Source of the DNA: Peribolospora baueri
Lineage: Eukaryota
Reading direction: 5' to 3'
DNA: 62,341 bases
NCBI GenBank assembly: GCA_029717555.1
Contig: JAMDHS010000112.1
Coordinates: forward strand, 1-62,341
Below, in pieces: positions 35,987 to 57,296 of the stretch. The notes beneath the pieces were generated by a model. The model was not told the DNA's origin, did not search any database, and saw only the letters and a program-made list of their open reading frames with translations. Position numbers and translations under genes: made by a program. Numbering within the stretch: the first letter of the stretch is position 1; every line of letters starts with the position of its first letter.

Positions 35987-38495
35987 TCAGTGATCCACAT
36001 GCAGCTCGCGACCCATGACCAGCTTGGCCTCCGCTTCGTCCGCCAGCTCTTCTGTCTCGTCATGGTTGTCAGACGGATGGAAGCTGCCAGAAGGCGTTCG
36101 TGACAAGCGCTTTTCGTCAAAGGCGGCGGTGTCGGCATCCGTCCAGAATGTGTAGGAGCTGGTACAGTCCAATGCGAGTGCACAGATGAGCAGACGTCCT
36201 GCCGCACGCACCTGACCCAGCAAGGACTGATCCTGACTTACGTCTTGGTGACCTGATAAGCCCCAGGCCGGATTTCCACCAACTCGCCTTGCTGGATCTC
36301 CACCTTTGGAATCTCCGAGGGTACGGTGCCAGTAAGGTAGGCGATGAGGCAACGCAGTACGCTCGCGTGACCGATGATCAGAAGGTCATCCTGTTCTCGT
36401 TCGATCTCGCAAATCACGGGCTCGAGGCGGACGGAGAGGTCGTGATAGGACTCGGCGCGGGGATAACGATGGGAGTATGGCTATGAGGATGGGACAGTGG
36501 CGCGAGTTAGAACCTTAAAGAGGTTTAGGGAAGCAGGTTTGGGGAGGGCAAAAGGGACGACCAACCTCCTGCAGCTTGCGGGCCCATTCGTCCGGATACC
36601 GCGCCTTGATCGCCTCCTCACTCATCCCGTCAACGACACCCGGGTTGATCTCGCTCAGCTGGCTGCGCTGAATCACCCGGTAACCCGCGGCCCGGAATGG
36701 CAAGGCTGAATTGTGCGAGCGTCGACGTGTAGAGGTCCAAACCTAGCCGAGTCGTTCAAAGTTGAGGCACATAAGTCCACGATAGCGATGAGCTCGACGC
36801 GCCCGAAAAAAAGTAAGAACTCACTGTCAGGCGTCTGACCTCCGGCACAGAGCTGTCGAGCTCGTCCCCGGCCTTTTTGGCAGCCGTTTTGCGATGCTCG
36901 ATGAGGAAGTCTTTCAGCCGTTCGGCATAAGCTTTTCCAACCGGCGATAGATCCGCGTCGGCCTAAGTTGGGGACACATTAAGATGGGTCATAAGCTTCC
37001 GTATTCCGGCTGAGCATAAGAGTCGAGCACCGACCTTGTAGAGGTGCTCAATAGTCGCCTTTCCGGCCTGCATGGCACATGAGGATGAACGGATTAGCGA
37101 CAGACTTCCAGCTCCGGGCAAAGCAGTCTCACCCTGGCAAAATAGATGGTTCGGGCCTTATTATGGATGTTCATGAGGAAGAAAGCGACTCTAGACTGGA
37201 AGCACAAAAAATGCAGAGAGAAACTTTACGTCACGACTGTGTATTGCACGGGCGCCTTATAGGACAACAGGCAGCATACCTGCAGATAGCCTTGTATGTT
37301 GTTGACGATGATTTGCTCGCCCACCTGATGATTCAAAATGCCGACCGTGAACGGGAGGGCTCGTCTACCCTTCAATGAACGAGACCAAGCACGCACATTG
37401 ACCACCTTGATGTAAGGAAAGCTGGGATTCTCGATGGGCTCGTAGTACTTCTCGTGCCCCTTGATGCGTGTCCAATAATCCGCTACTGCTTTCTCTGGAT
37501 CCCAACCGACGTACTGCACAAGACGATGTATACACGGCATTTCAAAAGGCGGAATGCATCAGACCGATCGATAGACGCCGCGGCCACTCACGTCCGGGCT
37601 TGAAATCTTGACGCTTCTGATATTTGTTTCGATGATCGCCTGATCGTCACATATGGATTCTGAGCACGCACCGCCGGGTGGGAAGCAGGGTGAGGCCTTT
37701 TTCTTGAGGCTAGCCGCAGGCGCGACTCACCTAGGAACATGACATGGACTCCCATCTTCCCATATCTCTCCCGAAGCCTGTACCTCGTACTCTGCAAGCC
37801 ATTGTTCGCATCGTATATGACTAACTGCCCGCCGTCCAAAAAAAACTTCTCCACTTGGGCGTCCAATCCGTCCTATAGAAGCAAATGAAACGCGCAGACC
37901 AAGTTGAGCGCATAAGATAGCATAGCACGGAGCAATGAACGTACCTGGATCTTCTTGCGGAGAGCGATCGTCTGCTCCGACTTGGGACCTGTGCAGCAGG
38001 CGCGGGCGCGGCGACTGACGTTTAGGGGCCATGAAAGATTGCGAGGCCCAGGGGGCAAGAACAGATCCATCGTCCTTAGCTCACCACTCTTAAAGTAGTC
38101 AGACGGCACGGACTCCGCGCCGCCCAGGGCCTTCCTGCGATAGTCTCCAAGGGAGAGCACGGCACACTTGACGCCGATCCATTTGAGATAGCGTTCCAGG
38201 GAGTGGCTCATGTGAGTCTTGCCACGAGCCGGCAACCCGACTGTAACAAGCAAGATCTTTCCAGCATGGTAGAGCTACGCGTGATGGGAATAAGAGGTCA
38301 TGAGCTGAGAGGCCAGGTAGGGCAGGCAAACCCCACTCGTCTTGAGCTGGCTGATCTCTCTCACCTGCCCGGACTGGGTTTGATAGAGTGGTGCGGCCCT
38401 GATCAACGACCGAGGAAGATTCAGTAACGACCGCACAGGTCCTCTCAGCATTTCATCCCGACAGCCATGGACGCGAGAGAGCCCAGCGCTCACAT
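35987..38495 (-). CDS. 6-phosphofructo-2-kinase/fructose-2,6-bisphosphatase family protein (YLR345W-like; phosphatase His replaced)
   Basis: [118 protein letters not shown]. Confidence 0.92.
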
Positions 38496-38750
38496 GCTCT
38501 TTCCTGAACGACGTTCCTGGAGGGTGTGAGTGTGGGTGTGTCGCGACAGTGGTACCCGAGTTCGATCGAGGACGGAGGCACACTGGCTGCCGCAGCATTT
38601 GAGACGGAGAACAGCGGGGGTTGCACCCAACGGCTGTGCCTGCAAGAACTTCTTACGTCCACCCACTTTGACTACTTCGACTGCTTCGTCTCCCTCACCC
38701 GTATATCGACTGACCACTCGCGCAAGAGGGCCCACAGCAAAGCTGCGGAG

Positions 38751-40292
38751 ATGGCCGGGGTTGCCTCCTCCTCCTCCGTCGTTTCCTCTCTTGCACCGTC
38801 TCTCCCTACCGCCACTGCCTCCGTCGGCAAGGCGCCGTCGGCGGAGCAGCAGGTCGAGTCTGGGCCGTTCGAAGGACCGGAGAAACTTCTCGAGCTCTGG
38901 TTCGCCCCTTCACCCGCAGAGACTGTAGGAAGCGATGGAAGAAAGTACAAGGACGCGACGTCGGCCTTGGAGAAGAGGACGGGACTGAGGATTGTTGCCA
39001 GGGAGGTGTGGGAGGACGTGCTGGATTTGGTCTGCTGCAAGGTCTTAAGCGTCGTGCAAGGCGACGAGCTTGATGCCTTGCTTTTGAGGTGAGCTTTGCA
39101 CGCTTCCAGATCTCTTGATACAGAGATAATGACCACCGTCCTGATGATTATACATCCTCCAGCGAGTCGTCCATGTTCATCTACCCTCACAAGCTCATCC
39201 TCAAAACTTGCGGTACGACCACGCTGCTTCTCGGTCTGCGTCGACTCCTCGAAATTGCTGCAGGAATCTTTGCAAGCACCCCGTCCTTGCCCAAAGATCT
39301 CAATTCGTCGAGTGCCAACGGTGCTTCTGTTGGCCAAGACGGCGATAAGAGCAGTGCGGATCAGGACCGCGCCCTGGGCACTGTTGTCTGGCGCTGTTTC
39401 TACTCTCGCAAAAGCTTTATGTTCCCGGAACGCCAAAAGGGCCCTCACAAAGACTGGATGCTCGAGGTGGCCTCGTTGGACAGGTTCTTTGGTATGTGTC
39501 TTTCTCTCTTTAGAGCTCATTGGGCAGATTGGATACTGATCCGTCGTCGCGTCATCGTACTACTTTCCAGCCGACGGGGCAGCTTACACCGTTGGAAAGA
39601 TGAATGGGGATCACTGGCTGCTGTACATGTCTTCTTCTTCCCCCAGCTCTCCCGGGCGTGACATCGTCCGACTCCCGTCCGAGCCACCCACTTCGCTCCA
39701 CACCACATCGCCCAGCTCGCCATCTCCACAGGACCAGACGCTCGAGATTCTGATGACACATCTTGACCCGAGCGCCTGTTCGCCTTTCTATTTCCCGCCT
39801 TCAAATGGAGAGTCATCTAAGTCGGGCGCCGTCCAGGGTCAGACTCTCTCCTCCCAACTGGACATCACCGGGCTCTTCCCTGACGCGACGCTCGATGCCT
39901 ATGCGTTCGACCCGTGCGGATACTCGGCCAATGCTGCGCTTGGCGAGGGCTATTGGACGATCCACGTCACGCCGGAGGAGCAGTGCTCGTTCGCATCCTT
40001 CGAAACCAACCTTGTCCCATCTTCCGCCTCCGCTGCCGCTGGAGGTCCGGCGGACGTTCGCGCATTGGTCTCTCGCGTGATCGACATCTTCAAGCCCGGT
40101 CGGCTGACCATCACGCTGTTCCTGAGCTGGGAGGAGGGAGAGGAGGAGGGAGAAGTGGAGAAGGGCAACGACTTGCACCGCTTCGGCCTCCAGGGGTACG
40201 TCAGGAAGGATCGGATCGCTTACGAGTTCGAAGGGTACGACCTTGTCTACGTTTGTTTCGAGAAGGAAGGCTTTGTAGCGTCAGAGCGATAG
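38751..40292 (+). CDS. SPE2: S-adenosylmethionine decarboxylase proenzyme
   Basis: [14 protein letters not shown]; spliced [22 protein letters not shown] (self-cleavage site); [55 protein letters not shown]. Confidence 0.97.
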
Positions 40293-40569
40293 TACTCGCT
40301 TCGCTGTGTCGCTGGGATAGACAACATTGGGAAGGAAAAGACTTGCGGGCCACAGTTGCCTGATGACCTCGATACCATCGGCGTTCGTGAGCACGTTGTA
40401 TATAATACCAGAGCGGAGGACAACGAAAACGTTGACCGCCTGTCCGTCTGACAACGTATGGAACTTTGTTGTCGGGGGAACCACGTGCGGAGAAGACTTA
40501 CTCGATCTTCACTCTTTCCTTACCGTGGGGTCGCTCGTTTATTCTCGAGCATGTTCGACCTGCTCCATT

Positions 40570-41095
40570 CTGAGGAATGACAAGAACGCGTACAAATCGT
40601 ACTTGGCCTCGGTATGGAGCAATGCTCTCAAAGAGCGACGCTCCGTTCGCCTCGTTTCATGTGCTCTCATCTTTCTCTCCTCCCTCTACTACGCTGATAT
40701 GTTGCCTCTGTCCTGCCAGTTCAAGTCTTCGTGACGGAGTGAGTGCAGCCTTCTTCGAGCCACGCTACGCGCTAGGTGAGCGTGATGGAAAGACATCGTG
40801 CATTTTGGATTACCACCTCATGTGGAAGCGCTACACGAGCACGTCGAGCGAACCCTCTGGCGGAAAAAGACATGCTTACGGTTCAGACTGCTTCTCTGGG
40901 CACAAGTGCTGGTGCCCTTCTCGGCGATACACCGAAAGCTATCCAACCAGACTGAACATTTGCACGACCCTGGCTCATGACCATGGCCGAGGTGCGATCG
41001 GTAGAATTTGACATATGATGCCGATTACTCTTACGCAGGAGGATGCACACAAGCTATGGAAGCTGAGCGAGGACCTCGTTGGGCAGAAGTTCTGA
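40570..41095 (+). pseudogene. Remnant of a retinol-dehydrogenase-like short-chain dehydrogenase
   Basis: After a CAG acceptor, 41039-41095 reads EDAHKLWKLSEDLVGQKF-stop, a typical C-terminus of this SDR subfamily. Upstream only degraded traces remain, with no GxxxGxG N-terminus. The left boundary is approximate. Confidence 0.55.
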
Positions 41096-41729
41096 GGTTG
41101 TGAGGGCGCCTCGCAATAGCTTCTAGATCTCGACGTCCTGGTGCCCCGAAGGGCCCATGCGTTCTTCGGCCTCGTTGTGTGCGCCTCTTCGCTCTCAGAG
41201 ACGGACCATGTGATCATCGGGAGCTGACAGATTCGGGGTTAATAGATAATCTTGCTTGATAGGAATTGAAACTGGATTATCTTATCCAGATCTTGAACGG
41301 ACGCACCCTGGGAATGGTTTTGCGAGCCCTTTTCGAGTTCTCGCGCTCCCGGTGCACCCTCTCGGTTGTGACGCGTAGAATTGAAGCCAGAGGCGACGAT
41401 TCTGCTTCCGCCCGCGAGGTGTTGGCCGACGCCGCCGAGACCGTTGTCGGAAATTCTGCGTTGCAGAGTGCAGATCTGCTCCAATCAGGTATATGAGCCT
41501 TTGCCTGCACCTCTTCTTTCCACACAACCAAAAGGTGACCAGGAAGTACGGAGGTACACAGCTGATGGATGCGCGTTTGCCAAAGTCAACCTGCATCGTC
41601 ACTGTGAGTATAAAGCCGAGATCATGGATAACACAAAAGATCAGGTAAGCAGCAGATCCAGCAACCTCCTATCCTCATCAAGGCAACCCATCTCTCTAAC
41701 CGTCATCCTGCTTCGTCTCCATTACCACC

Positions 41730-42356
41730 ATGTCCTTGGACGGCCCCATCACGGTCGTGATTGGCGCCTCTCGCGGGATTGGCGCTGCACTAGTGAAAGA
41801 GCTGAAGGCCAAGGGGCACCATGTGGTTGCGACGATGCGAAAGCCGACTCCGGTGGAAGGCGTTCAGGTCATTCCGCTCGACATTACCAGCGACGAGTCT
41901 GTCAGTGCTGCCGGCAAGGAGATTAAGCAGGCGGTGAGCGAGCGGGGCGGCAGCGGAGGAGACATTGTCGTCCTTCGGCCTGACGCGTTTTTGGTTTCTC
42001 CGTCCTTCCCTCTCTCCTTCGACCTGTCGTGCTTAAGGACACGCTGATCATCAACGCCGCAGTGGGCGAGGACGAGAAGCTGCTCGGGATCTCCAGTGAG
42101 ACGCTAACCAAGTGTCTGGATGCGAATGTCGTGGGCCCGCATCGCATAGTGAAGGCCTTCCTTCCTGCCCTTCGGGCGCGCAAGACGCGCAAGATCGTCA
42201 TCATTAGTAGCATGTCTGGATCCAAAGCTGTGCAGATTGACAGCAATTATGCCTTCGCTGGGCCGTACGCTGTCTCCAAGGATGCGGTCAATATGATCGC
42301 CATCCAGCTTCATAACGAGTTGCACAAGTCCGAAGGCTTCATCAGTGTGCCGTTAA
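41730..42356 (+). pseudogene. CsgA/C-factor-like SDR, 5' half (gene broken inside an intron)
   Basis: VVIGASRGIG, LDITSDESV, LIINAA, NVVGP, IISSMSGS, YAVSK..VNM; ends ISVPL+A at a GTGAGT donor (42357). TATAAA lies at ~41610. Confidence 0.88.
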
Positions 42357-42410
42357 GTGAGTTGTGTCTGGGCGGTCGGGAGGGAGAGTCGCGAACCTTA
42401 GCTGATGAAG

Positions 42411-42551
42411 GGCCGCGTAGGGCATCGAAGAGGTCATGTGGCCCACATCGAGCAGCACCTGGAACCGCTTCTTCCCTTCCTCCTCCGAGCCGTTGAAGAA
42501 GGAGATCGCGACGACTGCAGGCTGTGGGGAACGGACGAGGACGCCGAAGGT
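42411..42551 (-). pseudogene. FAD-linked oxidase (BBE-like) middle fragment
   Basis: TFGVLVRSPQPAVVAISFFNGSEEEGKKRFQVLLDVGHMTSSMPYAA, which continues in frame as INTLQN at 53032(+). Confidence 0.75.
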
Positions 42552-42799
42552 CTATCTGTTTGTGGTGTTGGTCGGCATGTCCAAGTTGGCAGGAGGGCGG
42601 TACGTCGGGGCGCCGCTCGGCTGCGGCGGGGCCGGCTGCGGCGGGGCCGGCTGCGGCGACAGGGCCCGCCGAGGGATGGAGTGCGTTACTTGCGTGTCGA
42701 CCGAATCTACATCCACCCAGTTCTTGACGAGCTCATTCCAACTTCCTTGCCCGCCCTACCTCTTCTCACACAACCCCTCCCGCCTTGGCGAACAGAAAT

Positions 42800-45707
42800 A
42801 TGGTGGACCCGTCGCCCGAGGATGCAAAGGCGAGGGCAGAAAAGGTTGCGAGAGCCAAGGCGCAGGTTGGTGTCCGGTGCTTCTCCGTCCGCCGACCTCT
42901 AGGGTTGCTGACATGTGGGCACGCTCTTTCTTCGATGCGCGTAGCTCAAAAAACACCAGAAGAAAAAGGCGGGGGGAGCCAAGGCCGGTAACGCGGCATC
43001 CCCTTCTCCCTCAGCGAGCACGATATCGCCCGGCTCGGCGCCGACGATCGCCGAGTCCTCGAATTCCGGAGATGGAGGGGCAGAGATGACAGATGCTGGC
43101 GCGAAGAAGCGGGAGGAGGAAGAAATCGCTTTGAGAGACACGTCGTCTCTATTTCCTGCCGACGATGCCGGTCAGGACGCCGACTCAGACCGCGCCTTCT
43201 TCTCCTCGCCTCCCATGTCCGCCTTGGCGTCGTCGCAGGGCTTTGAAGGTCAGCATCAGAACCGATTCGAGGGCAAGCCCGACGCCGAATCTCTTGGCGT
43301 CGAGATCGCCCGCGCGGAGCAGCTTGAAATCGATTCTCTGAGGAAGGAGCTAGCGGACAAGCAGGCCGCCATCTCGGTCCTCGTGTCCGAAAAGTCTGAG
43401 CTGAGCGCCAGGGCCGACGAGCTAGAAGGGCGGCTGGAGGAGCGAGAGGCGGCGGCGAAGGAGGGAATGGATGAAACGGAACGGTTGAGGAAGGAGCTGG
43501 AGGCGATGAAGATAGAGAAGGGTGAGGCCGAGGGGAGACTGGCCGAGGAAAAGAAGACAGGGGAAGAACAAAGGGACAAGGTGAAAACCTTAGTGAGTGC
43601 CGAGCCAGACTCGTTGTCACTACCCGTGCCGTGCATCCCCCATTGTTTCTCACCGTTCTCTCCGTGCTTCACTGTCCCTCGCCGTGTACAGGAACGCGAG
43701 CTTGATGTCTCTCGACGACAGGCGACGGAACTCCGCTCGACGATCACTTCCAAAGATCAAACAATCGCTGATCTCGAAGAACGGGCTTCTTCAACGGAGG
43801 AGGTGGATGGCCTACGCAAATCGCTCGCTGGCGCGGAGGACCGCGTATCCGGCCTCGAGGCCGAGCTCTCCCGCCGGGCGCAGACCTTGAGCGACCTCAA
43901 GGAGGAGCGCGACAAGCTCGAACGAGAGGCAAAGGCCGCCAAGACGGAAGGGGACGAATGGCAGCAAAAGCTTAGAGCTGCCAATGCAGAACTGGACGGG
44001 GCCCGAGAGGAGCTGGCAACGACCCGAGGTAACCTCGATGAGCTGACGGGCAAGCATAAGACCGTGTCATCCGAGCACGAGACGGTTAAAGCCTCCCTCG
44101 CGGCCGCGCAGACGGAGATCGAGGAGCACAAGAGCACGATCGCCACGCACGCCGATTCGCTCAGGGCCGCGCGAGACGATGCTTCCGCCGCTCACAAGCG
44201 CGCCGACGCCGCCTCCAAAAAGGTGGATGGCCTGCTCGTCGACAACGAGCGGCTGATCAAGAGCCTGGACGAGGTCAAGGAACGGGTGGGACAGCTGACG
44301 GCCGAAAAGGCCGAGCTGGGAGACCGGATCGAAGGACTAGAGCGTAGGATACGTGAGACGGACAAGGCGTCTCAGGCGGACAAAGAGAGGGTCGAAGGAC
44401 TGGAGCGAAGGCTACGGGAGGCGGACAAGGCGTCTCAAGCGGATAAGGAAAGGGTCGCTCAGCTGGAGGAAGGCTTGGAGAACAAGCAGGGCGAGCTTGG
44501 CGGTCAAATTGCCGAACTTGAGCGGAAGCTAGAGGCCGTCCGGGGCTCGTTGGCGGAGAGGGACTCGGAGGTGGACAAGCTTTCGACCGATCTTACGAGG
44601 CGGCAAGAGTCTCTCGACGCCACGTCGGCCAACCTCGCGGAGGCAAAGACGCAGGCCGAGCGGTCACGGGAACAGATCGACAAAGTCGAGGCTAGCCTCT
44701 CAAAGACGCAGGCCGAGCTAGACGCTGCAAAAGGCGAGGTCGGCGTCCTGACTCGGTCCGTTGAGGAGCTCAAGGAGGAGCACCGCCAGGAGACGGGCCG
44801 TCTGCAAGCAGAGCTGGACGAGGCTCGCGCGGCTGCTCGTGCAGCAGACGGGGAGCTCAAGGCGATGGCTGAGGCGAAGGAGAAGGAGAAGAAGGAGAAG
44901 GAAAAGGAAAAGGCCAACGGGGCCGTCGCGGAGGGCGGAGACATGGTGGCAAGGGACGTGTTTGACTCGATGATGCAGCAGCATGAGCTCGACCTCTCGA
45001 CGGCTCGATCTCAAGTCCGCTCCCTCGAGGCCAAGGTGTTTGCCGCGGAAGACACGAGCCATGGCTTGCGTCGCCAGCTGGGCGATCTGACACGGCAGCT
45101 GGAGGAGCTCAAGAAGAGCAAGGCCACAGTGTCTCCGTCTCCGTCTCTCGTTGGCGGCGATTCGCTCTTCGTCCCCGCCTCCGCTCCGATGCCGCTCGCC
45201 TCTTCCTCACGTTCTCACCGTCGTTCAGCGACAGCGATGAACCTGCCCACGCTGTCCGAGTCGCTCGAGTCGACACCTTCGCCGTCCTTTCTCCGCTCTC
45301 CGGCGCCAGGCCTGACGCCGACTCGCGCCCGAGGCATCCGCACGCAGTCGCCGTCAGAACTCAACTTGCCCCCGGAGACGCGTCACAGGAGAAGAGAAAG
45401 CTTGGGCATGCTCAAGGCGCGCATCGAGGATGAGCAGGGCTTCGGTGGTTTCCCAGGATCGCCCTCTCCGCTTTCTGGCTCGGGCGCTCAGACCCCTTCG
45501 ACGGGGGTGACGCCGCAGACGACTGCGAGCGGAAAGCCGTTCAGTCCCAATGTGGAGGTCACAGAGGACGGCTACGTCGGCGCCAAGCCTTTGCCCGTTC
45601 TCAGCTCGGGCACAGACGTCCTCGCGACGACGACCAAAAGGCAAGGCCTGCACCCCGACGCGCTGTTGTACTGTAGTTGCTGTCAAGGGGACCTGTTCGT
45701 CATCTAA
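42800..45707 (+). CDS. Long coiled-coil golgin-like protein
   Basis: Exon 1 MVDPSPEDAKARAEKVARAKAQ, intron 42866-42944, then LKKHQKKK; about 600 aa of heptad-rich sequence with a probable in-frame intron at ~43593-43691; RHRRRESLGMLKARI; C-terminus LLYCSCCQGDLFVI. Confidence 0.8.
44331..44456 (+). repeat. 63-bp (21-aa, three-heptad) diverged tandem duplication in the coiled-coil gene
   Basis: EGLERRIRETDKASQADKERV followed by EGLERRLREADKASQADKERV. Confidence 0.9.
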
Positions 45708-45922
45708 GCCATCAAGGAAGAGTCGCACGGAACGGTTCTTACGTCTCCTTCACGCGTGACGTGTTGCTCGACCGCCGATTGCATTAATCCAAAAGGAGAG
45801 GGGTAAAAGTCTAGGTGTCCGGATCACCTCATGCGGAGCATCTTATGCTCTTAGAAGTACGTGATTACGATGGAAAACGTGATATATAGAGCGGCGGAGG
45901 ACTGCTGACGGGTGACGACCGT

Positions 45923-48735
45923 TCAAAGCGTGTAGACGAATGCAGGGTGACAGTCACCAAGCTTTGCGTGGACCTCTTCCTCGTTCAAACCCTGCTCCTT
46001 CAACGCTTTGACCTTTCCGTTCCGCTTGCCATCCCTCCTGGCCTTGTTCTCGTGCCAAAGATACGCCTCGAGCACGAGCGTCAGCGCGAAGCCGACGACA
46101 TTGAGTGCCAGGTTCACCTCGTGTCCCTTGCGGTAACGCGGAGCGCCCGAGTCCTGATAGATCCACGTGCTGGTGATGCCGCCACTGCAAGTTAGGACGG
46201 GTGGAAGACGGATGAAAGGTTAGATGAGGCGTCAACACGGTCATCACCGATTGAAGGGATTGAAATACACGAACCAGTTGGTGAAGATGATCCTGCGACA
46301 GAGAATGCGACGCCGAAATAGAGGATTTGCTCGTCAGCCGGAGTATGCGCTAAAAAACTAAAAAAAAACTAAAAAAAAAATAAAAAAAAAAAAAAAACGT
46401 ATACTCACAAAGAGGCGATGGCCGTCGCCCTCTTGTACTATGACGGACGGAAGGCAAGCGTTAGTCTACGGGGTGCCACTCCAGCCTGTGACGAGAAGAG
46501 CGCGTTGTGAGTGACTCACATGACCAGCCGTGTTGTTCGCCATCCAAGCGAGACCACAGGCAGGCCAAGCGAAGGCGCCGGAGACTGCGTGCGAAGCAGG
46601 AAAATTGTGTATAATGAAAGGCGGAGAGGAAGCGGATCGGTCAGTCATAGATAGACCTTGGTGACGACGCACAGGTCCCTGAAGATTGAGAACTCACCCA
46701 GCAAGAATGTGGCGCCATACTGGACGTGGCTGTTGGAACTAGCGTATGCCATGGAAAAGCCAATGATCGACAGTGCGAAGCAGAAGAGTGCGGCAGTCGC
46801 GCGCTGCTTGAAACGGTCCGCGTAGATGGCCGTAACGATGGTGACTGAGAACAGGAGTCATGTTAGAAAGGGAACGAATATCCACTGAGGCCTGACTGAT
46901 GGGCGCACCGACGAAAGCTGCCGCGAAAGGAGGAACCGTGAGCAGCTGCGCGTGCGTGGCAGTATAGGTGCCAAGGCCCTTGACGATGGTCTGACGAGTC
47001 ACGAGACGAAAGCGTCAATGGAGGTCCGAGGGGACTACTGGGATGGGTTGATAGAGTTCGAAGGCATACCGGGAGGAAGAACGCGGCTGAATACACCGAC
47101 GTCGCATCACAGTATCCTTGAAAACATAGGAGCCAGACAATGGGAGACTTGTAGGCGTCGAGGACGTAGCGCCATTCGAAGCTGTGTCGCGTCGGGGGCG
47201 GAGCGGATTGAAATGCCGAGGTCAACACACCGCGACTCACGCACTAGACTCGATGGGGCTCACCGGTCGCCGGAGTGTTCGTCCGCCGCCGCAGGTACGA
47301 CGCTTTCCTGCTTCTCCTCCACCTTCTCTCCGGTCTTCACGTCCGCAGGCTGGACGCCAAACCCATCCTTGCCCGACGTCCCCTGGCCGAGGTCTTCCGC
47401 CTTTGCGCGCGCCCAGTCCATCTCGAGACGACGGACGGCGAAAGCGCGTTCTTCAGCGGTAAGGAACTTGGCCGTGCCGGGGGAGCGCGGAGCGAGGAAG
47501 AAGGAGCAGACGCCAAAGAGGACAGTGAAAATGCCTTGAGATGGGAGAAGGGAGACGAGGAAACGTCAGAGTTCGCACGGCTTGTTTCAGACGGGGATAT
47601 GCTCACCTTCCAGGATGAAAATCCAGCTCCATCCGTGCAGTCCCGCCCTGCCGTCCAAGTTGCTGATCGCGGCGGCGAGAAGACCGGAGAAGGCGCCTGA
47701 AAGAGAAGCGGCAGAGAAGAAGAGACCTTGTCGTAGCTGGAGCTCGTGGCGCTTGTAGAAAAAGGTGAGCCAGACGGAGATGCCGGGGAGAATGCCGCCT
47801 TGGGGGTGGGTAGGGAAGGAAAAAAATGGAATGCCATTAGATGAGCAGCTTGGCTCCGACGGGCGCCAGAAGGAAGAAAGACACGTTAGGCAAACCTTCA
47901 GTGAGGCCGAGGAAGAAACGAACGACGTAGAGACCGGTGCGGGATGTGACAATGCTGAAGAGGGCAGGTCGGAATGCCGAGGATACGAGGACGAAACGGT
48001 GAGATTCATCTCAATTACATAAAAAGAGACGAGGACGAGGCGTACCCTTGCAATGTGGCGCAAACGCCCCAGCAAGTGACGAGGAAGGGCAGCCAGAAGT
48101 TAGCACCGACCTTCTTGAGGACGAGGTTGGCGGGCACCTCTCCGACGATGTAAGGCACGTAGAGGATGGTGAGAGCGACGCGGTAGTCGTGAGAGGAGAG
48201 GTTGAGCTCCTTCTGCAGGCCGTCTAGACGCGCTTGACCGATGTTTGTCCGGTCGAGGAAGGAGAGAAGGTAGAGCTAGTGGTGTGGGAGGGCACGGGGA
48301 GGGAAGACGGGGTAGAAGGGGGGGAGAAGGAAGGACCGCAGGGTTAGAAGGACTGGAGTGGGAGGGCAGACGCGAAAAGAGCTCACCATCGTAGCCAAGG
48401 GGATGACCGTCGCGTCGAACTGAGCGGCGAAGCGAAGCATGCCAGAGCGATGAGAAGAAGGAGGATGAGCTAGCCGGCTCGACGGCGGGAACTGGCGTCA
48501 CGGGTCGCCAAACTCGTCGGCTGCGCACCTTGGCGGCGATCCTCCTGTCCATCCTTCTCTCCTCGGCGGGTGACATGAGCACCGCGTCCTCCCCGCCATG
48601 TTCGCGCCCCGATCCATCGCTCCTTCCTTCCGTCACCGTCGCTTGCGGGTTGGGGGAGCGAGAGCGGTCCGTCTCCGTCGGAGCGGGAGCCTCCGCTGGA
48701 GCCGTGCCGGGCTCAGGGTCGTGCTGGTGTGCCAT
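45923..48735 (-). CDS. MFS transporter, Dal5/Tna1 (allantoate/nicotinate permease) family, many introns
   Basis: FDATVIPLATM|LYLLSFLDRTNIGQARL, YVPYIVGEVPANL, EGGILPG, FYKRHELQLR, SGAFSGLLAAAI..LDGRAGLHGWSWIFILEG, AQLLTVPPF, WMANNTAGH|YKRATA, DCHPAFVYTL. Confidence 0.93.
46350..46397. repeat. Interrupted poly(A) tract in an MFS intron
   Basis: ctaaaaaactaaaaaaaaactaaaaaaaaaataaaaaaaaaaaaaaaa seen directly. Confidence 0.9.
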
Positions 48736-49546
48736 GGCGGATCGGAGGGAGTGAGGGGGGAGAAGGAGAAGGGAGGAGGAAAGGATGGCGGATGGTGGGG
48801 GGAGGAAGAAAAAGGATGATGAGGGGAAGAAGACTGCGGAGAGGGCGATGGAAGGGGACGGCGGGCCGGGCGGGGAAGTGTGAGTCTAGGAAGACGCCGT
48901 CCGGCACGTGGGCAAAAAAATGCGCGTCGAGCGCAAGACGAAGACGACAGGAGATGACGACGCAGGCTCGGAATGCAGAGGAGTTAACAAGAGTCATCGG
49001 TGTCGAGAGGCAGAACGAACGAGCAAACGAACGAACGTCTTCCTTCGCCGCAGACGTTCATGTCGAGATGTAACACCACCTCTCCTTCCTCCTCACCGCC
49101 GTCGCTCTGGCCGCCATCGCGCCCTCGCCTTGCTCACCCCGCTTCTCCTGACTCGACCGCTTGTTACTTTTTCTTCCTCTTCCCCCACATTCCGCCTCCG
49201 CATCTTGTCGATCCGTCAGCCGCAGCACGGCACCTTCTCACGCTGACAGTTTTTATCTCGGCAAGTGGAGGTGGCTTTGGCACGTGTATGCATCTAGAGA
49301 AAGGGAGAAAGAGAGTAAGAAAAAAAAAAAGAGGGCTTTCTTTTTCAACTCGCTGGACGGCATAGCGAATCACAATCCCTTTGCCATCATCTTAACAAAC
49401 AGTCTCATCCGCCGTCTTTCTTGACCTATGACGCTCTCAGACCTCTCGAATTGCACGACACAGAACGAAACGAGATTCCAATCCTCCACCGCCTGGAGAA
49501 GGAGTAGCGCACAATGAACAGAAGAAAAGCAGTTAAAAATGTTTTT

Positions 49547-52236
49547 TTAGTCGAGAGCCTCTGCGGGGAAGGAAAGAAAGAAAGATGAAAGAAAGGGCAT
49601 GCACGTGTCAGTCACGTCAACTGTCATGTCACCAGATCGTCGGCCGGCATTTCGGACACTCACCCATCTCGTTGCTCTCCGCGCCCGTCTCCGCCGGCGC
49701 CTCGACGGGAGCAGGGGCGGAAGGCTCGTCGATGGCCAAGCCGAGCGAAATCAGCTTGAACAACCTGTCGGCGAAGCTGGACGGCTCATCAAGCGAGAAG
49801 CCACCGGTGAGGAGGGACACCTCGAAGAGAAGCAGGGTCAGGTCCCTGACCGTGGCGTCGTTCTTGTCCTTGGCCACCTTGTCCTTGAGCTCCTTGATGA
49901 TCGCGTTGCTCGGGTTGAGCTCCATCGTCTTCTTCGACGCCATGTAGGACGACATGCTCGAGTCGCGCAGCGCCTGGGCCCGCATGATGCGCTCCATGTT
50001 GGACGACCAGCCGAACTGACCCGTGACGAGAACGCACGGCGAAGTGGTCACGCGGTTCGACACAACCACCTTCTCCACCTTGTCGCCAAGGATCTCCTTA
50101 ATGGCCTTGCACAGGTCCTCGAACTGCTTGGCCTCCTCCTCGCGCGCCTTCTTCTCCTCCTCCGTCTCCTCCAACTCGAGACCCTCCTTGGACACGCACA
50201 CCAACTTCTTGCCCTCGAACTCCTTCAGCTGCGTCACCGCGTACTCGTCGATGGGGTCGACCATGAGCAGCACCTCAAAGCCCTTCTTCTTGAGCGCCTC
50301 GAGGAAGGGAGAGTCGCGCACGCTGCTCAGCGACTCGCCGGTGAGGTAGTAGATCGACTTCTGGATCTCCGGCATCCGAGTGATGTAGTCTGCGGGAAAG
50401 ACGGACGCGGTGGTCAGTCAGCGACTCGGCCATACCCGCGAGAGACGATGCTGCGCGCACTCACCCTTGAGGCTGGTCAGCTCATCACCACTCTTGGTCG
50501 AGTGGAAGCGGAGGAAGGAGGCCAGCTTGGCACGGTTGGCAGAGTCCTCGTGGATGCCAAGCTTAATGTTCTTGCCGAAAGCCTCGTAGAACTTGTTGAA
50601 GTTGTCCTTGTCCTGGGAACATGAACGTCCGATAAATACACAATCAGCCCTCACCTTTCCGGCCTCGGAATGCCCAAACAACACAGGGAAAAGCATCCGA
50701 TTCGGCAAAGCACACTCACCTCCGCGATCTCGTCGAACATTTCGATGGTCTTCTTGACGACGTTCTTGCGGATGACCTTGAGGATCTTGTTCTGCTGCAG
50801 CGTCTCACGGGAGATGTTGAGGGGGAGGTCTTCAGAGTCGACAATACCCTTGATGAAGTTGAGGTACTCGGGAATGATGTCCTCGCAGTCATCCATGATG
50901 AAGACGCGGCGGACGTAAAGCTTGATGTTGTTGCGCTTCTTCTTCGTCTCGAAGAGGTCGAAGGGAGCGCGCTTGGGAACGTAGAGGATGGCCTTGAATT
51001 CGAGCTGGCCCTCGACGGAGAAGTGCTTGACAGCGAGGTGGTCCTCCCAGTCATTCGAAAGCGACTTGTAGAAGGAAGCGTACTCATCGGCGGTGATGTC
51101 CTGAGGGTTACGAGTCCACAGCGGCTTGGTCTTGTCTGTGGTAGAGAAACAGAAAACAATAAGCGTCCTGCCTCGCCATGTTTTGGACATGCGCCACCGA
51201 GCATACTCACTAAGCTCCTCGTTCTCCGTCTGAATCTCCTTGATCTTCTTCTTGCCCTTCTTCTTGTCCTCGTCCTCAGCATCCTCGATCTTCGCCTTCT
51301 GGTCGTCATCCTCGGCCTTCTCCTCCTCCTCCTCCTCGACCTCCTTCTCCACCTCCTTGGTCACGACGAGCTGGATGGGGTAGCCGATGAACTCGGAGTG
51401 CTTCTTGACAATCTCGCGGATCCTCTTCTCCTCGACGTACTCCACCTGGTCCTCCTTGAGGAAGAGGCGGAGCTCGGTACCGCGGCCAAGGGGAGGGTTG
51501 GTGGTGTCGGGAGTGATGGTGAAGGTGCCACCGGCGGCCGACTCCCAAATGTACTGTTCGTCGTCGTTGTGCTTGGTGATGACCTGAACGCGCTCGGCAA
51601 CGAGGTAGGCGGAGTAGAAACCGACACCGAATTGACCGCTGTGGAAAGGAAGAAAAACGGAACGTCAGCACAGAGTGTGCGAACGCGGCTTTCCCGAAGC
51701 TCTGGATCGACTCACATCATGGAAATGTCGGCGCCGCTGCTGAGAGCCTCCATGAACGCCTTGGTGCCGGACTTGGCGATCGTACCAAGGTTGTTGACGA
51801 GGTCGGCCTTCGTCATACCGATACCCGTGTCGCGAATCGAAAGCACCTTGTTCTCCTTGTCCGGGGTAATGCGGATGTAGAGCTCCTTCTCATGCTCAAG
51901 CTCCGCGGGGTTCGTCAGCGCAGCATAGCGGACCTTGTCGAGCGCGTCCGAAGCTGTAAGGAGGGCACAGGAACGTCAACGTACAGTGTTAGGATACGGA
52001 CAGGGGAGAAGACGAGTACCGACGCCGCCGACGCTCGCACACTCACCGTTAGAGATAAGCTCTCGGAGGAAAACATCCTTCTGGGAGTAGAAAGTGTTGA
52101 TGATGAGGTCGAGCAGCTGGCTGATCTCAGCCTGGAAGCTGAGTGCGGCGCACGGGGGTGGGTAACACAAACGGTCAGAACGGACGTGACCTTTGTCGTC
52201 GTTGAGGAGAAGTACTCACCCAAAGGTTTCGGCCAT
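49547..52236 (-). CDS. HSP90: Cytosolic heat shock protein 90
   Basis: [108 protein letters not shown]; last exon 49560-49547. Confidence 0.98.
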
Positions 52237-52489
52237 TGTGAGAGCGGTTCTAAAGGATGAAGGTCTGTGAGATGAGGCCGCGTCACGATTACAGTAAAGT
52301 GTAAAGGAGTTTTGGGGACAGAGGATTCGAGGTGAGCGAGTGTCTTGGGCTTTTGCGTGGAGGAGAGAGGCAAATGGAGGCAACTGCTACTGACCGGAAG
52401 TGGTGAAGGAAAAGGAAGGTGAGGGAAGAAATACTCGCTCTGTCCTCGTCCGCCCTCGTCGCTGCATTTTCCGTCTCACCGCATCAGGC

Positions 52490-52508
52490 CTTCGAGAAGC
52501 ATCCAGAG
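52490..52508. promoter_or_regulatory. Imperfect heat-shock element upstream of HSP90
   Basis: cTTCgaGAAgcATCcaGAG, about 255 bp upstream of the ATG; a second imperfect array GAAagCTCgaGAAct lies at 52649-52663. Confidence 0.5.
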
Positions 52509-52766
52509 CGATCATCCGTGTAAAGCCGCTTGTCGCCGCCTAGCCGTCAATGCCGTAGCTGACTACCGCGGCCTAATCTTTCTCGCTGTGAGACAATGGT
52601 CACGCATCCTTCCAGTCGTTTGTCCTGTCGCCTGTCTTGCTTGCGACGGAAAGCTCGAGAACTTTGTCTACTTGTCCCCTCGGCTATATGTCCCCTTGTC
52701 TACTTGTCTACATGTCTACAGGTCCCCGCAGCTCTCACTCTGGCGCCAGCGACTCTCCACTCCGTA

Positions 52767-53003
52767 TCACCATGGGAGCTCGGGGCCGTCCCATCCGAAA
52801 AAGTGAGCGCTGTTCTCGAGTTTGAGTCCTTCAATGACCTTGACGATGCCCGAAGCGCACGTCTCCGGTGTGATTCCGCCTCCTCCGAGCACGTCGCTGA
52901 CCTTCCGACCCATGTCGGTGTTCTGATCGCAAGGGTAGAAGAAAGACAAATAAAGAACATTGCACGCTCAAAAGGTCACTGCTACTCACCACCCAACCCG
53001 GGT
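52767..53003 (-). pseudogene. CsgA/C-factor-like SDR, 3' half (2 exons)
   Basis: Exon 53003-52990 (AC CCG GGT TGG GTG = N-PGWV), intron 52989-52923, then exon NTDMGRKVSDVLGGGGITPETCASGIVKVIEGLKLENSAHFFGWDGPELPW-stop. Confidence 0.88.
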
Positions 53004-53031
53004 CTATGTCGTTACCGTGGTCATTTCAAAT

Positions 53032-53660
53032 ATCAACACGCTTCAGAACCATTGCCACGCACGGTGATCGCAAGGCATTCAAGGCCGCTCGCTGCCTTTT
53101 CCCTCCCGGACGCGGCGCTATTCCAAATGTGAGCGCGACCCCGGCCTGCGTGCCCTCCCGCTCGCTCTCCACGGCTGACCCCCCGCCCTCGCCTCGCCTT
53201 CCCCTCCCCCGTCCCCTGGTTGGCCGTCGTGCCGGCGCAAACAGGCTGTTCAACAACTACGTGCATCTTCTTAAGGAAGTCCCCGACGCGGGCCAGACGG
53301 GCCTACTGATCGAGCTGCACCCCTACGCCGCCGTGCTGGCGAACCGCAGCAAGTGATGCTTTGCCAACCGCTGTCGGTTCTACAACATGAACATTGCCGC
53401 GCGTTGACGTCGCCGGAGAACGACCGGAGGATCCGCGACTGGTCGCGGACCCACGCCGAGGTGGTTCGGGCGGCGGAGAGCCAGCGTCCTGGTTCGGAGC
53501 TCCCCTCGGGACAAACCAAGGGCTACGACAACTACGGCCTGGGGGACGAGCGGGTTCGCGACGTGTTTGGCGAGAACTACGAGCGCCTGGGCAGCTCAAG
53601 GCGCACTACGACCCGGAGATGCTTTTCAACAAATGGTTCCCCATTACACCGGCTGCATAG
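53032..53660 (+). pseudogene. FAD-linked oxidase C-terminal part with BBE domain, frameshifted
   Basis: INTLQN/IATHGDRKAFK, LLIELHPY, CFANR..FYN, GYDNYGLGDERVRDVFGENYERL/QLKAHYDPEMLFNKWFPITPAA. The motifs fall in different frames and there are internal stops. Confidence 0.85.
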
Positions 53661-53794
53661 AGTTCCGCTCCGCTCCCACCCTCCCCCGTCCTCTACCTTT
53701 TCGCCCCGGCTAACCCTGTCCTCCTTCGAATCCGTTGGAGAGAGGCAGGTCTGTGATGTAGTCCATCGAGACATGTGCTTCGTTTTTATAGAAT

Positions 53795-53821
53795 AGAAAA
53801 AAAAAAAAAAAAAAAAAAAAA
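53795..53821. repeat. Poly(A) homopolymer of about 26 nt
   Basis: Seen directly. Confidence 0.9.
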
Positions 53822-56800
53822 GGCCTTGGGTCCCGCGCTCGCTTTTCCTTCCCGCTCCCGCCGCCGCCGCCGACCCTTCCCTCCCCTCTCCCCCCAAATC
53901 CACTCCACCCCGCCCCGCACTGTCGGTCATTGTGAGCCGCCGCCGCCGCCGCCGCTGTCGCCGCCTTGCAAAGCTATCGAGCGTTGAGACCGGGAAAAAA
54001 AAGAAAAAGGCACGAGAACGAGAACGAGCGCAGTAGCAGTAGCAGCAGCAGCATTTCGTAATAGTAGCAGGAACAAAAAAAAGAAACAGAAACGGAAACA
54101 GTTGCTGAAGCAGAAGCAGAAGCAGAAGGTAACAGCGCGATTCGTACAAAGTCGGGACGCGGGCGACGGACGGGACGTGCATTTTTTTCTTTGCTCGGCA
54201 GGAGGGACGGACAAGGCAGATGTACTTTTTTCCTTCTTCTTCTTTGTTTCACTCTTTTGACTACGTGTACGCGTACGCCACAGCCGCGGTCGGCGCAAGA
54301 GAGAGAGAAAGGAAAAGGGAAAATGAGAGTCGATGTGGGGAGACGGGCGGAGGGAGGGAGGGACGGGAAGGAGGGGGGCGGGATGGAGAAGAAGGGAGGA
54401 CGGGAAAGGAGTGGGTCGGCCCACCTGTCCACCTGCCTGCCTGCCGGCCACGATGGTCCAGAACAACGATTTGCTGCGGCACCACTGCGGCCGTCGTACG
54501 ATGAGAAGACGGAAAGATACGGCGTGTGCCAAGGGAAAAATACGGAGAGCGAGAGCGGAAAGATACGGAGTGTGCCAAAGAGCGAGAGCGAGACCCGGAA
54601 AGGAGCGCGAGAGCGACGAACGGGAGACGGTGGCGGACAGAGACCGGGAGAGAGGCCGGAGAGAAAGAAAGACTAGGTGAAGGTGGGGAAAGACGAGCGG
54701 CGTAGAGGGCGGAATTGTCAGAACCCGTTGCCCGAACCCGTCTTGTTGCCGAAGCACAGTACTGTGCCGATGTAGCGGGTACGAAGATGGAAGTCCGAGT
54801 GCAGACCGTCTCGGGGTTTGTACATATGGAGCAGCGGGGCGACGGTGCGCACGCACGCGACCGGAGAGGCGCGGGGGAGCGTGCGCGACGTACCGTACTG
54901 CTCTCCCGTTAGGTTGAAGAATGTCTCTAAGGAAATGCGTATGATTTGCACCGAGGGGCATGATCGCCGACGTGGGCGGTGGATAACCAGAGAAGCCCGT
55001 TACGCCCACTAGCACGCGAGGAGGTTTAAAAGGGTTCTGGAGTGTACCTGCCCCAGGTTCCAAGCCAAACGCCCACCGATCGCTCTTTCCCAAGGACAAA
55101 TAGCGTCGCAATCCGAGGGAGAGACGTATCAAGAGGGCACAATCTCTCACCTGGCCTCCCACCGTTAGCAAATCAATCCACTGCGCAAGCCTTCATGCCA
55201 CGCAACGCACTGCTCGTGCTCCCACAGCGATGACTGAACTCGGCATTTCGAGGCTTACGGAAGGTTAAAACCAATGGTTGACAAGGGTTGTCGATTGGAC
55301 AGAGTTGGAGCTGGTCTACGGCGATAAGCCGCCAGGACGACGTTAGACTTGGATGTCGTACCAGCCTTTTGCGAGCGGCCAGAAGGAATATTCCTCGCGC
55401 CAACCACACTTCGGTCGGCCCTAAGCTGATGTCCTGCATCTCACTAACCTAACCGAACGAACACGCCTTACCAACCGCCTTTACTGAAGGTGCAATGCTG
55501 AGGGTGACCAACCAGTCGACGCTCTGCATTCAACCCGGTCGTTCCCGCATTCTCCTCTTCCCCACACGCACCTAGTTTTCGCCTTCATTCCGCCGTCTCC
55601 CCTCGTCGGCCTCACGGTCTCCCTGATTTCGTGGCCACCGCGTTTTCCTCTGCTATTCGTCTCCACTTCTACCAGTATCCAGCCATTCGCCCCAGCCTAT
55701 TATCATAGCTTCCCGGGTTCCAACCTTGCCACCTTCTTTGTGGGACTGCGTTATCGATGACAGGTGAGCGATGTCGCCGGCAGGGACAGAAAGGCAGTCG
55801 TATATCCGTTCAAAAACAAACTTTGGAAGCGATCCAGCTAGGCAACTTGCTCCAGCGAGCGTGTCATGACTACATTCTCGATCGCGAGGATCTACCCAAA
55901 CAAAGGGAGACCACGTCGCTGGCGCGCGAAAGGCGACACATCTGCCCTTGATGTCTACGTTCATACATTATGCGTCATAGCAGACCGAGATCGACGATCG
56001 TGCAGCGTGCTATGTGATTTAGATTCTCTGAACCTTCTACATCCGTTCGGTGTTGGTCAACCGCATCGTGTACTAATGACGGTCGAGCGGGGCTCAAACT
56101 CTTCCCCGCTCACCATCCATCTTCGCTTACATCTCAACACTGCCCTCATCTGGCTATATCGGCCTAGCGTCTTGATTGAGTTTATCTAGGAAGGGTGCTA
56201 GTGCATTGCTTCTTGGGCAACGGAATCCTCCTTGCGTTGGTTCTTGGGCGGCGGTGGACGCCGAAACAAAAGCGAGCAAGACGGCTTTGCTGATGAAATT
56301 CATCGTAGCAAGCGGACGATGGAAACGAGGGCGACATGCGAGATGAGGAGCGGTCAAGGGACAAGGACGCGGTAGGGAGACGCCTTCACGAATCGCCTAT
56401 ATTTTAATCTCTATTATTTATGCCTTTCAGGGCGATTCAAGTTTTACAGGGCTTTTTAGGGGACGCTAGCATCATTCGCAACGCGGGCCGCATCGCAACG
56501 TCCAAAGGTGGAGGTGGAGTTCTCCGAGCTTTACCTAAATGCCCAAACCCAAACTACACTTGGCGCCATGCCCTTTGAAGCAGAGCTGTCACCGCTGGGA
56601 TGTCAAGAATTGGGTCACGATAGGGCTGGGGACTGGGACTGGAAACCTCCTACCGTCCTTAGCTCAGGTCGCTAGACAGAGAGGGGACAAAGGATGGGTC
56701 GATGGTGCCAGTCCTGGGAGCTGACAGCTCGGGCTGGAAAGGGGAGTGTTGGGAGCTGAGGCTGGACAAGGAAGACTGGGCAGGAGAGTAGGCAGGGGAA

Positions 56801-57296
56801 AATTTAGGCATGACAGGTGCAAAAAGCTGGGGAAGGAAACGGACAGAGAAGAACCTGAGGACGGAGCCAGGTGACAGGTGGGGATCTCCGGGAAGGGCGG
56901 GGAGACATGGAATGGACCTGGGCGGCCCGGACAACTGGGAGGGGTTGGAACGTTAAGTTCCATCAGTGCGGATGAAGTTTTATCTATGCGACTAAAGTTA
57001 ATGCCGATGACGAGGGGGATGCAAAGCTTTGTCAGGAGACGAACTGTGGAGGATGGCCGTGGTCCAAATCGACAAGATCGGCCTTCGTCGCTCCGATTTG
57101 CGAAGACATGTTGGAAAGGATGGCACTCGCGCAACGGCTCGGCTGTCCGTGCAAACGTGCGCACTCGTGTCCTGACTCTGCCAAGCCGACCCAAGCGATA
57201 TCCGGCAGGAATATAAAAAGCGAAATCAGCTGAACCGACCTTTCCCCAGCGCACCCACAAACGGGGCAGCGGAGTTATGACGGGAGATGGACTCAT

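Follow-up and report, generated by a model that had tools for sequence, protein, structure and literature searches.

How did the two halves of one short-chain dehydrogenase/reductase (SDR) gene come to lie 10.6 kb apart and on opposite strands of the same contig? The DNA concerned, hereafter the window, is a stretch of 62,341 nucleotides (nt) from the fungus Peribolospora baueri (contig JAMDHS010000112.1). A preliminary description of its letters had proposed a 10.6 kb inversion with near base-exact breakpoints that splits two genes, the SDR gene and a gene for an FAD oxidase. We found that positions 42411–53032 (10,622 nt) are inverted relative to a closely related organism, that the inversion cut the SDR gene in its second intron, and that the other break lies in an oxidase sequence with the features of a pseudogene relic. 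The explanation as a whole, in which two breaks would have been rejoined through non-homologous end joining (NHEJ), the SDR gene was broken and the oxidase was already dead, has in our estimate a probability of about 0.88.

The 5′ half of the SDR gene was located on the plus strand. Exon 1 (41730–41933, 68 codons) starts at ATG, contains GASRGIG, corresponds to homolog residues 5–68 and matches positions 2–72 of 195 of the Pfam profile adh_short (PF00106) with 29.9 bits. Intron 1 (41934–42037, 104 nt, GTGAGC...AAG) fits the exon phases and is skipped in the homolog alignment. Exon 2 (42038–42356), with the Ser and YxxxK positions, matches positions 79–171 of 195 with 49.7 bits; both exons exceed the curated cut-off of 26.6 bits. 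As the preliminary description had stated, the 5′ half stops at 42356 before GTGAGT, and exon 2 ends there in phase 1. The donor opens the 5′ part of intron 2 (42357–42410, 54 nt), which includes a branch-like GCTGAT site and ends at the left breakpoint. Read alone, the 5′ half would continue to a stop at 42494.

The last 56 codons are 10.6 kb off on the other strand, so the SDR is not one uninterrupted gene. The 3′ part of intron 2 (53004–53032, minus strand, 29 nt) reaches the right breakpoint and ends in TAG. It is followed on the minus strand by exon 3 (53003–52990, 14 nt), which together with the last base of exon 2 encodes NPGWV, by intron 3 of the joined gene model (52989–52923, 67 nt, GTGAGT...CAG), and by exon 4 (52922–52767), with 51 codons and a stop after ELPW. 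The four exons joined in silico gave an in-phase frame of 693 nt and 230 amino acids without a lesion, in agreement with the earlier claim that the missing exons start on the minus strand with TAG|AC CCG GGT TGG GTG at 53003. The intron rebuilt by re-inversion has the GTGAGT donor, the GCTGAT branch-like site and the TAG acceptor. The intron and its GCTGAT had been foreseen correctly, but its length is 54 + 29 = 83 nt by the junction in the relative, not about 82 nt.

Homologs were collected with the exon 2 protein in a search for longer proteins, in which 68 of 253 candidates matched at E ≤ 0.001. Identity reached 63–65% in the best of them, and full-length fungal SDRs of 226–232 residues were numerous. 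Seven of the 68 (full-length proteins from several genera and one derived from Logan) were mapped back to the window by tblastn. All seven were collinear on both halves, with residues of about 5–68 on exon 1 and about 70–175 on exon 2 on the plus strand, and the residues from about 181 to the end (181–226) at 52919–52770 on the minus strand. Both halves therefore align to single homologs, the check that had been suggested for the SDR. The joined protein aligned end to end with six homologs of 226–232 amino acids. GASRGIG, the serine of ISS, YAVSK and TDMG were conserved with these six, and PGWV was present in five of them, with PGNV in the sixth. We take GASRGIG to be the glycine-rich nucleotide-binding motif, and the Ser and the Tyr-x-x-x-Lys (YAVSK) to be the SDR catalytic positions. 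No other SDR match was found within the window. A search of proteins of similar length for orthologous SDR fragments from the two organisms compared below returned one match, which was unrelated, at 65% identity. The inversion thus cut the SDR gene in intron 2, separating exons 1 and 2 with the promoter and start from exons 3 and 4, and destroyed the gene.

The order of the segment was compared with that in sequencing runs. Four runs contain the left-junction region: X1 and X2 from the organism of the window (organism A), and X3 and X4 from the related organism (organism B). Their contigs, from the Logan re-assembly (a separate k-mer assembly of the reads), were compared with the window over 38500–57500. 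A record filter was applied to this comparison, and stretches left uncovered in B prove nothing. One contig of B (record 11, run X3, 22,162 nt, depth 101) follows the plus strand of the window over 38500–42410 and then passes to the minus strand from 53032 to 51544, where it ends. The two sides of this 42410|53032 joint lie on opposite strands, with 0 intervening and 0 ambiguous letters. At this junction, one of the two, B is un-inverted and SDR intron 2 is continuous. The two organisms differ by 90 substitutions in 5,333 aligned bases (1.7%). Further joints, from 43123 and 45118 to 51316–51319, rest on 20–23 letters of a CCT/GAG-type repeat and were taken as spurious.

Each of the two runs of A gave one contig of 37,379 nt that spans 38500–53766, including both junctions, and showed 0 differences from the window over this range. 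Depth was even, at 108 (X1) and 84 (X2). The un-inverted joint was not seen in the X1 and X2 contigs over the compared region. The inversion is real, and an assembly artefact is unlikely because two runs of A each give a contig that crosses both junctions without a difference from the window. The preliminary description had raised the possibility that reads support only the un-inverted order; the contigs of A support the inverted order instead, and it is the relative that is un-inverted. Its proposal of a 10.6 kb inversion with near base-exact breakpoints was borne out by the joint in B and by the contigs of A.

We then placed the breakpoints to the base. The inverted block had earlier been set at 42411–53031; its left end stands, whereas the joint in B moves the right end to 53032, one base further. 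Re-inversion of 42411–53031 makes the oxidase read ...MPYAA-INTLQN, followed by a 2-nt frameshift before IATHGDRK. Three homologs extend this far; at the position of INTLQN they read LNGIQN, VNGVQN and VNGAQN. Re-inversion with the limits from B (42411–53032) gives one continuous frame across the junction, but with six residues unlike the homologs. B has a T after 42410, and the oxidase homology needs an A before TCAAC; in the window only a single base pair of this kind is present, that at 53032. The most economical reading is that T and A were both present in the ancestor and that one base pair would have been lost at rejoining. Alternatively, the inversion may have been perfectly conservative and have struck a pseudogene already without that A. 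In both cases the inversion is precise to within a single base pair, and no more than one was lost. A G-rich run at 42363–42378 (three GGG and one GG) lies in SDR intron 2, 30–45 nt before the left breakpoint, and is a possible candidate for a fragile spot.

The junctions were searched for repeats. The region 41000–54500 holds 488 inverted-repeat pairs, and none of the 25 longest, which were those considered, has an arm at each junction. The longest inverted word shared within 40 nt of both junctions has 5 nt. In a random control of 500 window pairs the median was 6 nt, and 489 of the 500 reached at least 5 nt. Neither duplicated sequence flanking the segment nor transposon ends at the breaks were found. 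The repeat listing and the shared-word control agree with the preliminary description, which had seen no inverted repeat, transposon end or microhomology and had called the inversion clean and repeat-independent.

The right breakpoint adjoins the remains of the oxidase. The upstream piece (42411–42551, minus strand, 47 codons) ends with ...MPYAA at the breakpoint, has an in-frame stop upstream at 42552–42554 and was identified by tblastn with the homologs P0072 and P0069. The downstream piece (53033–53660, plus strand) carries a BBE-type C-terminus spread over three frames. A 65-residue piece of this downstream fragment, used as the query against a representative library, retrieved seven proteins at E ≤ 0.001. 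P0070 was dropped as an unrelated repetitive match, with 14 matched stretches and unrelated Pfam families. Pfam found a BBE domain in five of the six library proteins scanned, P0073 being the one left out of the scan. P0072 (462 amino acids) is full length, with FAD_binding_4 (41–174) and BBE. Its residues 253–295 map by tblastn to 42524–42405 on the minus strand, and on the plus strand residues 289–379 map to 53012–53404 (frame 2), 382–439 to 53410–53589 (frame 1) and 441–458 to 53592–53645 (frame 0). Residues 114–159 of P0069 also map to the upstream piece (42524–42396, minus strand). Most blocks were 43–56% identical to the homologs. After re-inversion in silico the homolog alignments run across the oxidase junction, so that here too both halves align to single homologs.

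The oxidase differs from the SDR gene in its state of preservation. Nothing in the window matches, at E ≤ 1, residues 1–252 of P0072, a part that takes in the whole FAD-binding domain, and the coiled-coil gene described below begins about 500 nt past the last aligned oxidase codon. The relic of about 770 nt contains at least three frameshifts, one of which, at about 53590, splits the BBE part, and one or two in-frame stops (TGA at 53354; 42552–42554). Six oxidase pieces were compared with Pfam. Five gave nothing for this family, and the sixth, a fragment of the relic, gave only a weak BBE match (E 0.079, 13.4 bits, cut-off 20.6). The relic nevertheless aligns to the BBE part of five homologs that themselves pass the BBE cut-off. 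Two short oxidase pieces, compared with the sequences in PDB, gave 0 matches at E ≤ 10. By these features the oxidase is a truncated, frameshifted pseudogene relic of FAD/BBE type and not a working gene. It would have been dead before the inversion, because the SDR is free of lesions and the relic has many, while the divergence between the two organisms is only 1.7%.

The SDR was accordingly the only apparently intact gene to be broken, and the claim that the inversion splits two genes was not sustained. The letters of the proposed oxidase join, from the minus-strand fragment ending TAC GCG GCC at 42411 to ATC AAC ACG at 53032, were correct and agree with the homolog alignment, but the joined pieces do not make an intact gene.

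Some local features accompany the relic. A perfect 15-nt tandem repeat of 2.7 copies (42618–42658) lies inside its upstream part. Downstream of it, a 46-nt stretch (53726–53771) has matches in each of the four runs, to contigs that are short or of high depth, with a depth of 550–585 in B against about 100 for single-copy sequence, and the long contig of A ends at 53766. This stretch is probably part of a dispersed repeat.

From these results we propose the following course of events. In the lineage of organism A, two double-strand breaks would have occurred, one in SDR intron 2 and the other in the dead remnant of the FAD/BBE-type oxidase. The breaks would have been rejoined the wrong way round by NHEJ, inverting 10,622 bp. 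The ancestral order would have been SDR, HSP90, MFS, the coiled-coil gene (on the opposite strand) and the oxidase relic, and the HSP90, MFS and coiled-coil genes would have moved with their own flanks and been left whole. NHEJ is the probable pathway because there is no homology, no duplication and at most 1 bp lost. The accessible text of PMC3355041 names staggered breaks with NHEJ and transposon-mediated ectopic recombination as the two major mechanisms of inversion, and states that widely staggered breaks leave inverted duplications flanking the segment.

Several points weigh against this explanation. The pathway is deduced from the absence of homology only, the polarity from gene continuity with no outgroup in the comparison, and the 1-bp loss from a reading frame inside a pseudogene. 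Runs X1 and X2 are perhaps the source reads of the window, and hence may not be independent of it. The oxidase-side junction falls outside the coverage of B: no B contig lies on 42411–51543, and X4 gave almost nothing. The X3/X4 word share of 0.52 on 41000–44000 hints weakly that B has more than the 1.4 kb aligned there.

The possible identity of X1 and X2 with the source reads gives some room to an assembly artefact, in which the segment was mis-oriented by the assembler and the chromosome is really un-inverted. However, the separate re-assembly of the two runs returned a single contig over both junctions, identical to the window and even in depth, and showed no alternative joint. Orientation errors arise at repeats, and neither junction has one, which makes such an artefact very improbable. 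A further alternative is ectopic recombination between inverted repeats, or between transposon copies, that later decayed or disappeared. Such recombination is a major mechanism, as noted above, and a 24-nt, 79% inverted pair (42414–42437/52834–52857) does adjoin the left break. Both arms of this pair are inside the segment, with the right arm 175 nt from the break, and with 488 pairs in 13.5 kb it is at chance level; it was rejected. In addition, the SDR-side junction of B is a plain intron with no extra letters. Undoing the inversion at these breaks recovers, to within 1 bp, both an intron and a reading frame that matches the homologs, so that there is no space in which a repeat could have lain. 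We regard a repeat-mediated origin as highly doubtful.

It is also conceivable that both genes were intact when broken and that the oxidase decayed only after the inversion. The identity of 43–56% to homologs that the oxidase pieces retain over most blocks indicates that the decay is not ancient. Against this timing stand the N-terminal 252 residues that have no counterpart in the window, the coiled-coil gene starting so near the last aligned codon, and the contrast between a relic of about 770 nt with three or more frameshifts and one or two stops and an SDR of 693 nt with none, at a divergence of only 1.7% between A and B; we consider it unlikely. The reverse polarity, with the window order ancestral and a derived inversion in B, gains only from the missing outgroup. 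It would require the chance assembly of a four-exon, in-phase SDR with a proper 83-nt intron, collinear with all seven homologs, and its probability is practically negligible. The explanation by two breaks and NHEJ thus remains the preferred one.

Was the SDR gene expendable? The copy in B lacks 42029–42095 (67 nt), a loss that takes out the intron 1 acceptor along with 58 nt at the start of exon 2, including the conserved DTLIINAA stretch. It also has a 2-nt deletion at 42195, and 6 + 8 + 12 nt (26 nt in total) are deleted at 41788–41815 in exon 1, where five inserted letters are also present, so that the net change there could be in frame. From these lesions, which are different from that in A, the SDR copy of B looks independently disabled. 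In organism A, a separate contig (11.5–13 kb) matches 41024–41107, 41422–41489 and 41699–41998 at about 85–94% identity, with about 85% identity to the SDR 5′ region (41699–41998) and to the two upstream stretches. To judge from this similarity, the contig carries a paralog, partial or whole, that comprises the SDR 5′ region and pieces of upstream sequence. The independent damage in B and the copy of about 85% similarity elsewhere in A suggest that selection on this SDR was relaxed and that the gene was probably expendable.

Upstream of the SDR, Pfam identified an S-adenosylmethionine decarboxylase gene. The B contig has 2,394 extra letters between window positions 41001 and 41002, also upstream of the SDR, a difference that arose by insertion in B or by deletion in organism A.

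The genes inside the segment were described by the preliminary description as a golgin-like, an MFS and an HSP90 gene, all carried intact. All three genes look whole. The aligned part of HSP90 (49677–52143, minus strand) matches Pfam HSP90 (PF00183) with E values of 3.8e-94 and 1.3e-96. All three full-length homologs compared align from residue 7/8 to 677/689, in three blocks on the minus strand, and the best full-length fungal matches, Ustilaginomycotina proteins, are 77–79% identical, a weak indication that the organism is probably a basidiomycete. The upstream sequence 52144–52766 is inside the segment, and about 870 nt of the gene's own upstream sequence is included. The MFS transporter gene (45923–48272, minus strand) has several exons; its open pieces are collinear with the MFS_1 profile, at positions 5–88 (48272–48015), 99–157 (within 48099–47587) and 255–305 (46854–46645), each below the cut-off alone. 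The coiled-coil ("golgin-like") open frame (42945–45707, plus strand) has 920 codons, with a first ATG near 43083. Its Pfam coiled-coil matches are all below threshold, the best being TPR_MLP1_2 with 24 bits against a cut-off of 36. The MFS and coiled-coil genes appear intact, an impression formed with their exact ends unmapped.

Minor features were also recorded in and around these genes. The coiled-coil gene contains an in-frame 63-nt tandem duplication (44329–44475; 2.0–2.3 copies, 82–86% matches) with a 21-residue unit. Positions 52664–52727, in the HSP90 upstream region and downstream of the SDR stop, form an array with 8-nt periodicity (about 7 TTGTCTAC-like copies). A heat-shock-element-like consensus pattern was not enriched: it occurs 8 times in the window, and shuffling predicted 15.1 occurrences. 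Two one-mismatch sites of this kind upstream of HSP90 (52491–52503 and 52649–52661) carry no evidential weight. Intergenic poly(A) or A-rich tracts occur at 46352–46397 (46 nt) and 53797–53821 (25 nt). A tRNA scan of 38000–58000 found none.

The rearrangement created new neighbours. Some 670 nt upstream of the coiled-coil gene, and oriented like it, there now stand the promoter and start codon of the SDR, its first two exons and an orphan GTGAGT donor. By analogy with the human inversion at ZNF257, in the accessible part of PMC4591017, transcripts that fuse SDR and coiled-coil sequence might arise, or the coiled-coil gene might have gained a new promoter input. Alternatively, the changed neighbourhood of HSP90 might matter for the heat response between the sister organisms. 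We think such effects improbable.

That human inversion, HsInv0379, is a 415 kb rearrangement of NHEJ type ("breakage and erroneous repair") that disrupts ZNF257. According to the accessible text of PMC4591017, it resembles the present case in its simple breakpoints without repeats or microhomology, in a breakpoint inside a gene that parts the promoter and first exons from the rest, and in an ancestral state recognised from interrupted elements that become continuous again. It differs in size, 415 kb against 10.6 kb in a compact fungal genome, and in being a genotyped polymorphism rather than a difference between two organisms; a fusion transcript is here only conceivable from the DNA. In the excerpted part of PMC3355041, fixed inversions of Drosophila were likewise defined at the nucleotide level against a non-inverted relative, with gene alterations at the breaks. 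Unlike those inversions, the one described here has no flanking inverted duplications, which means that the breaks were not widely staggered, no transposon copies and at most 1 bp changed. Sister species of the Cryptococcus amylolentus complex of basidiomycete yeasts, whose genomes differ by a few percent, also show small intrachromosomal inversions, but the breakpoints examined there, as far as the accessible text of PMC6561019 goes, were at inverted near-identical gene copies, whereas no repeat is present here.

Judged by the accessible parts of PMC3355041 and PMC4591017, gene-breaking inversions of NHEJ type are an already described class. The inversion in the window is a new instance of it, and the finding opens no new question. 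In an annotation, neither the two SDR fragments nor the oxidase pieces should be entered as short genes; the appropriate label is pseudogene fragment. For the biology of these fungi, the locus provides a base-level example of repeat-free reshuffling in compact fungal genomes, in which one gene was sacrificed.

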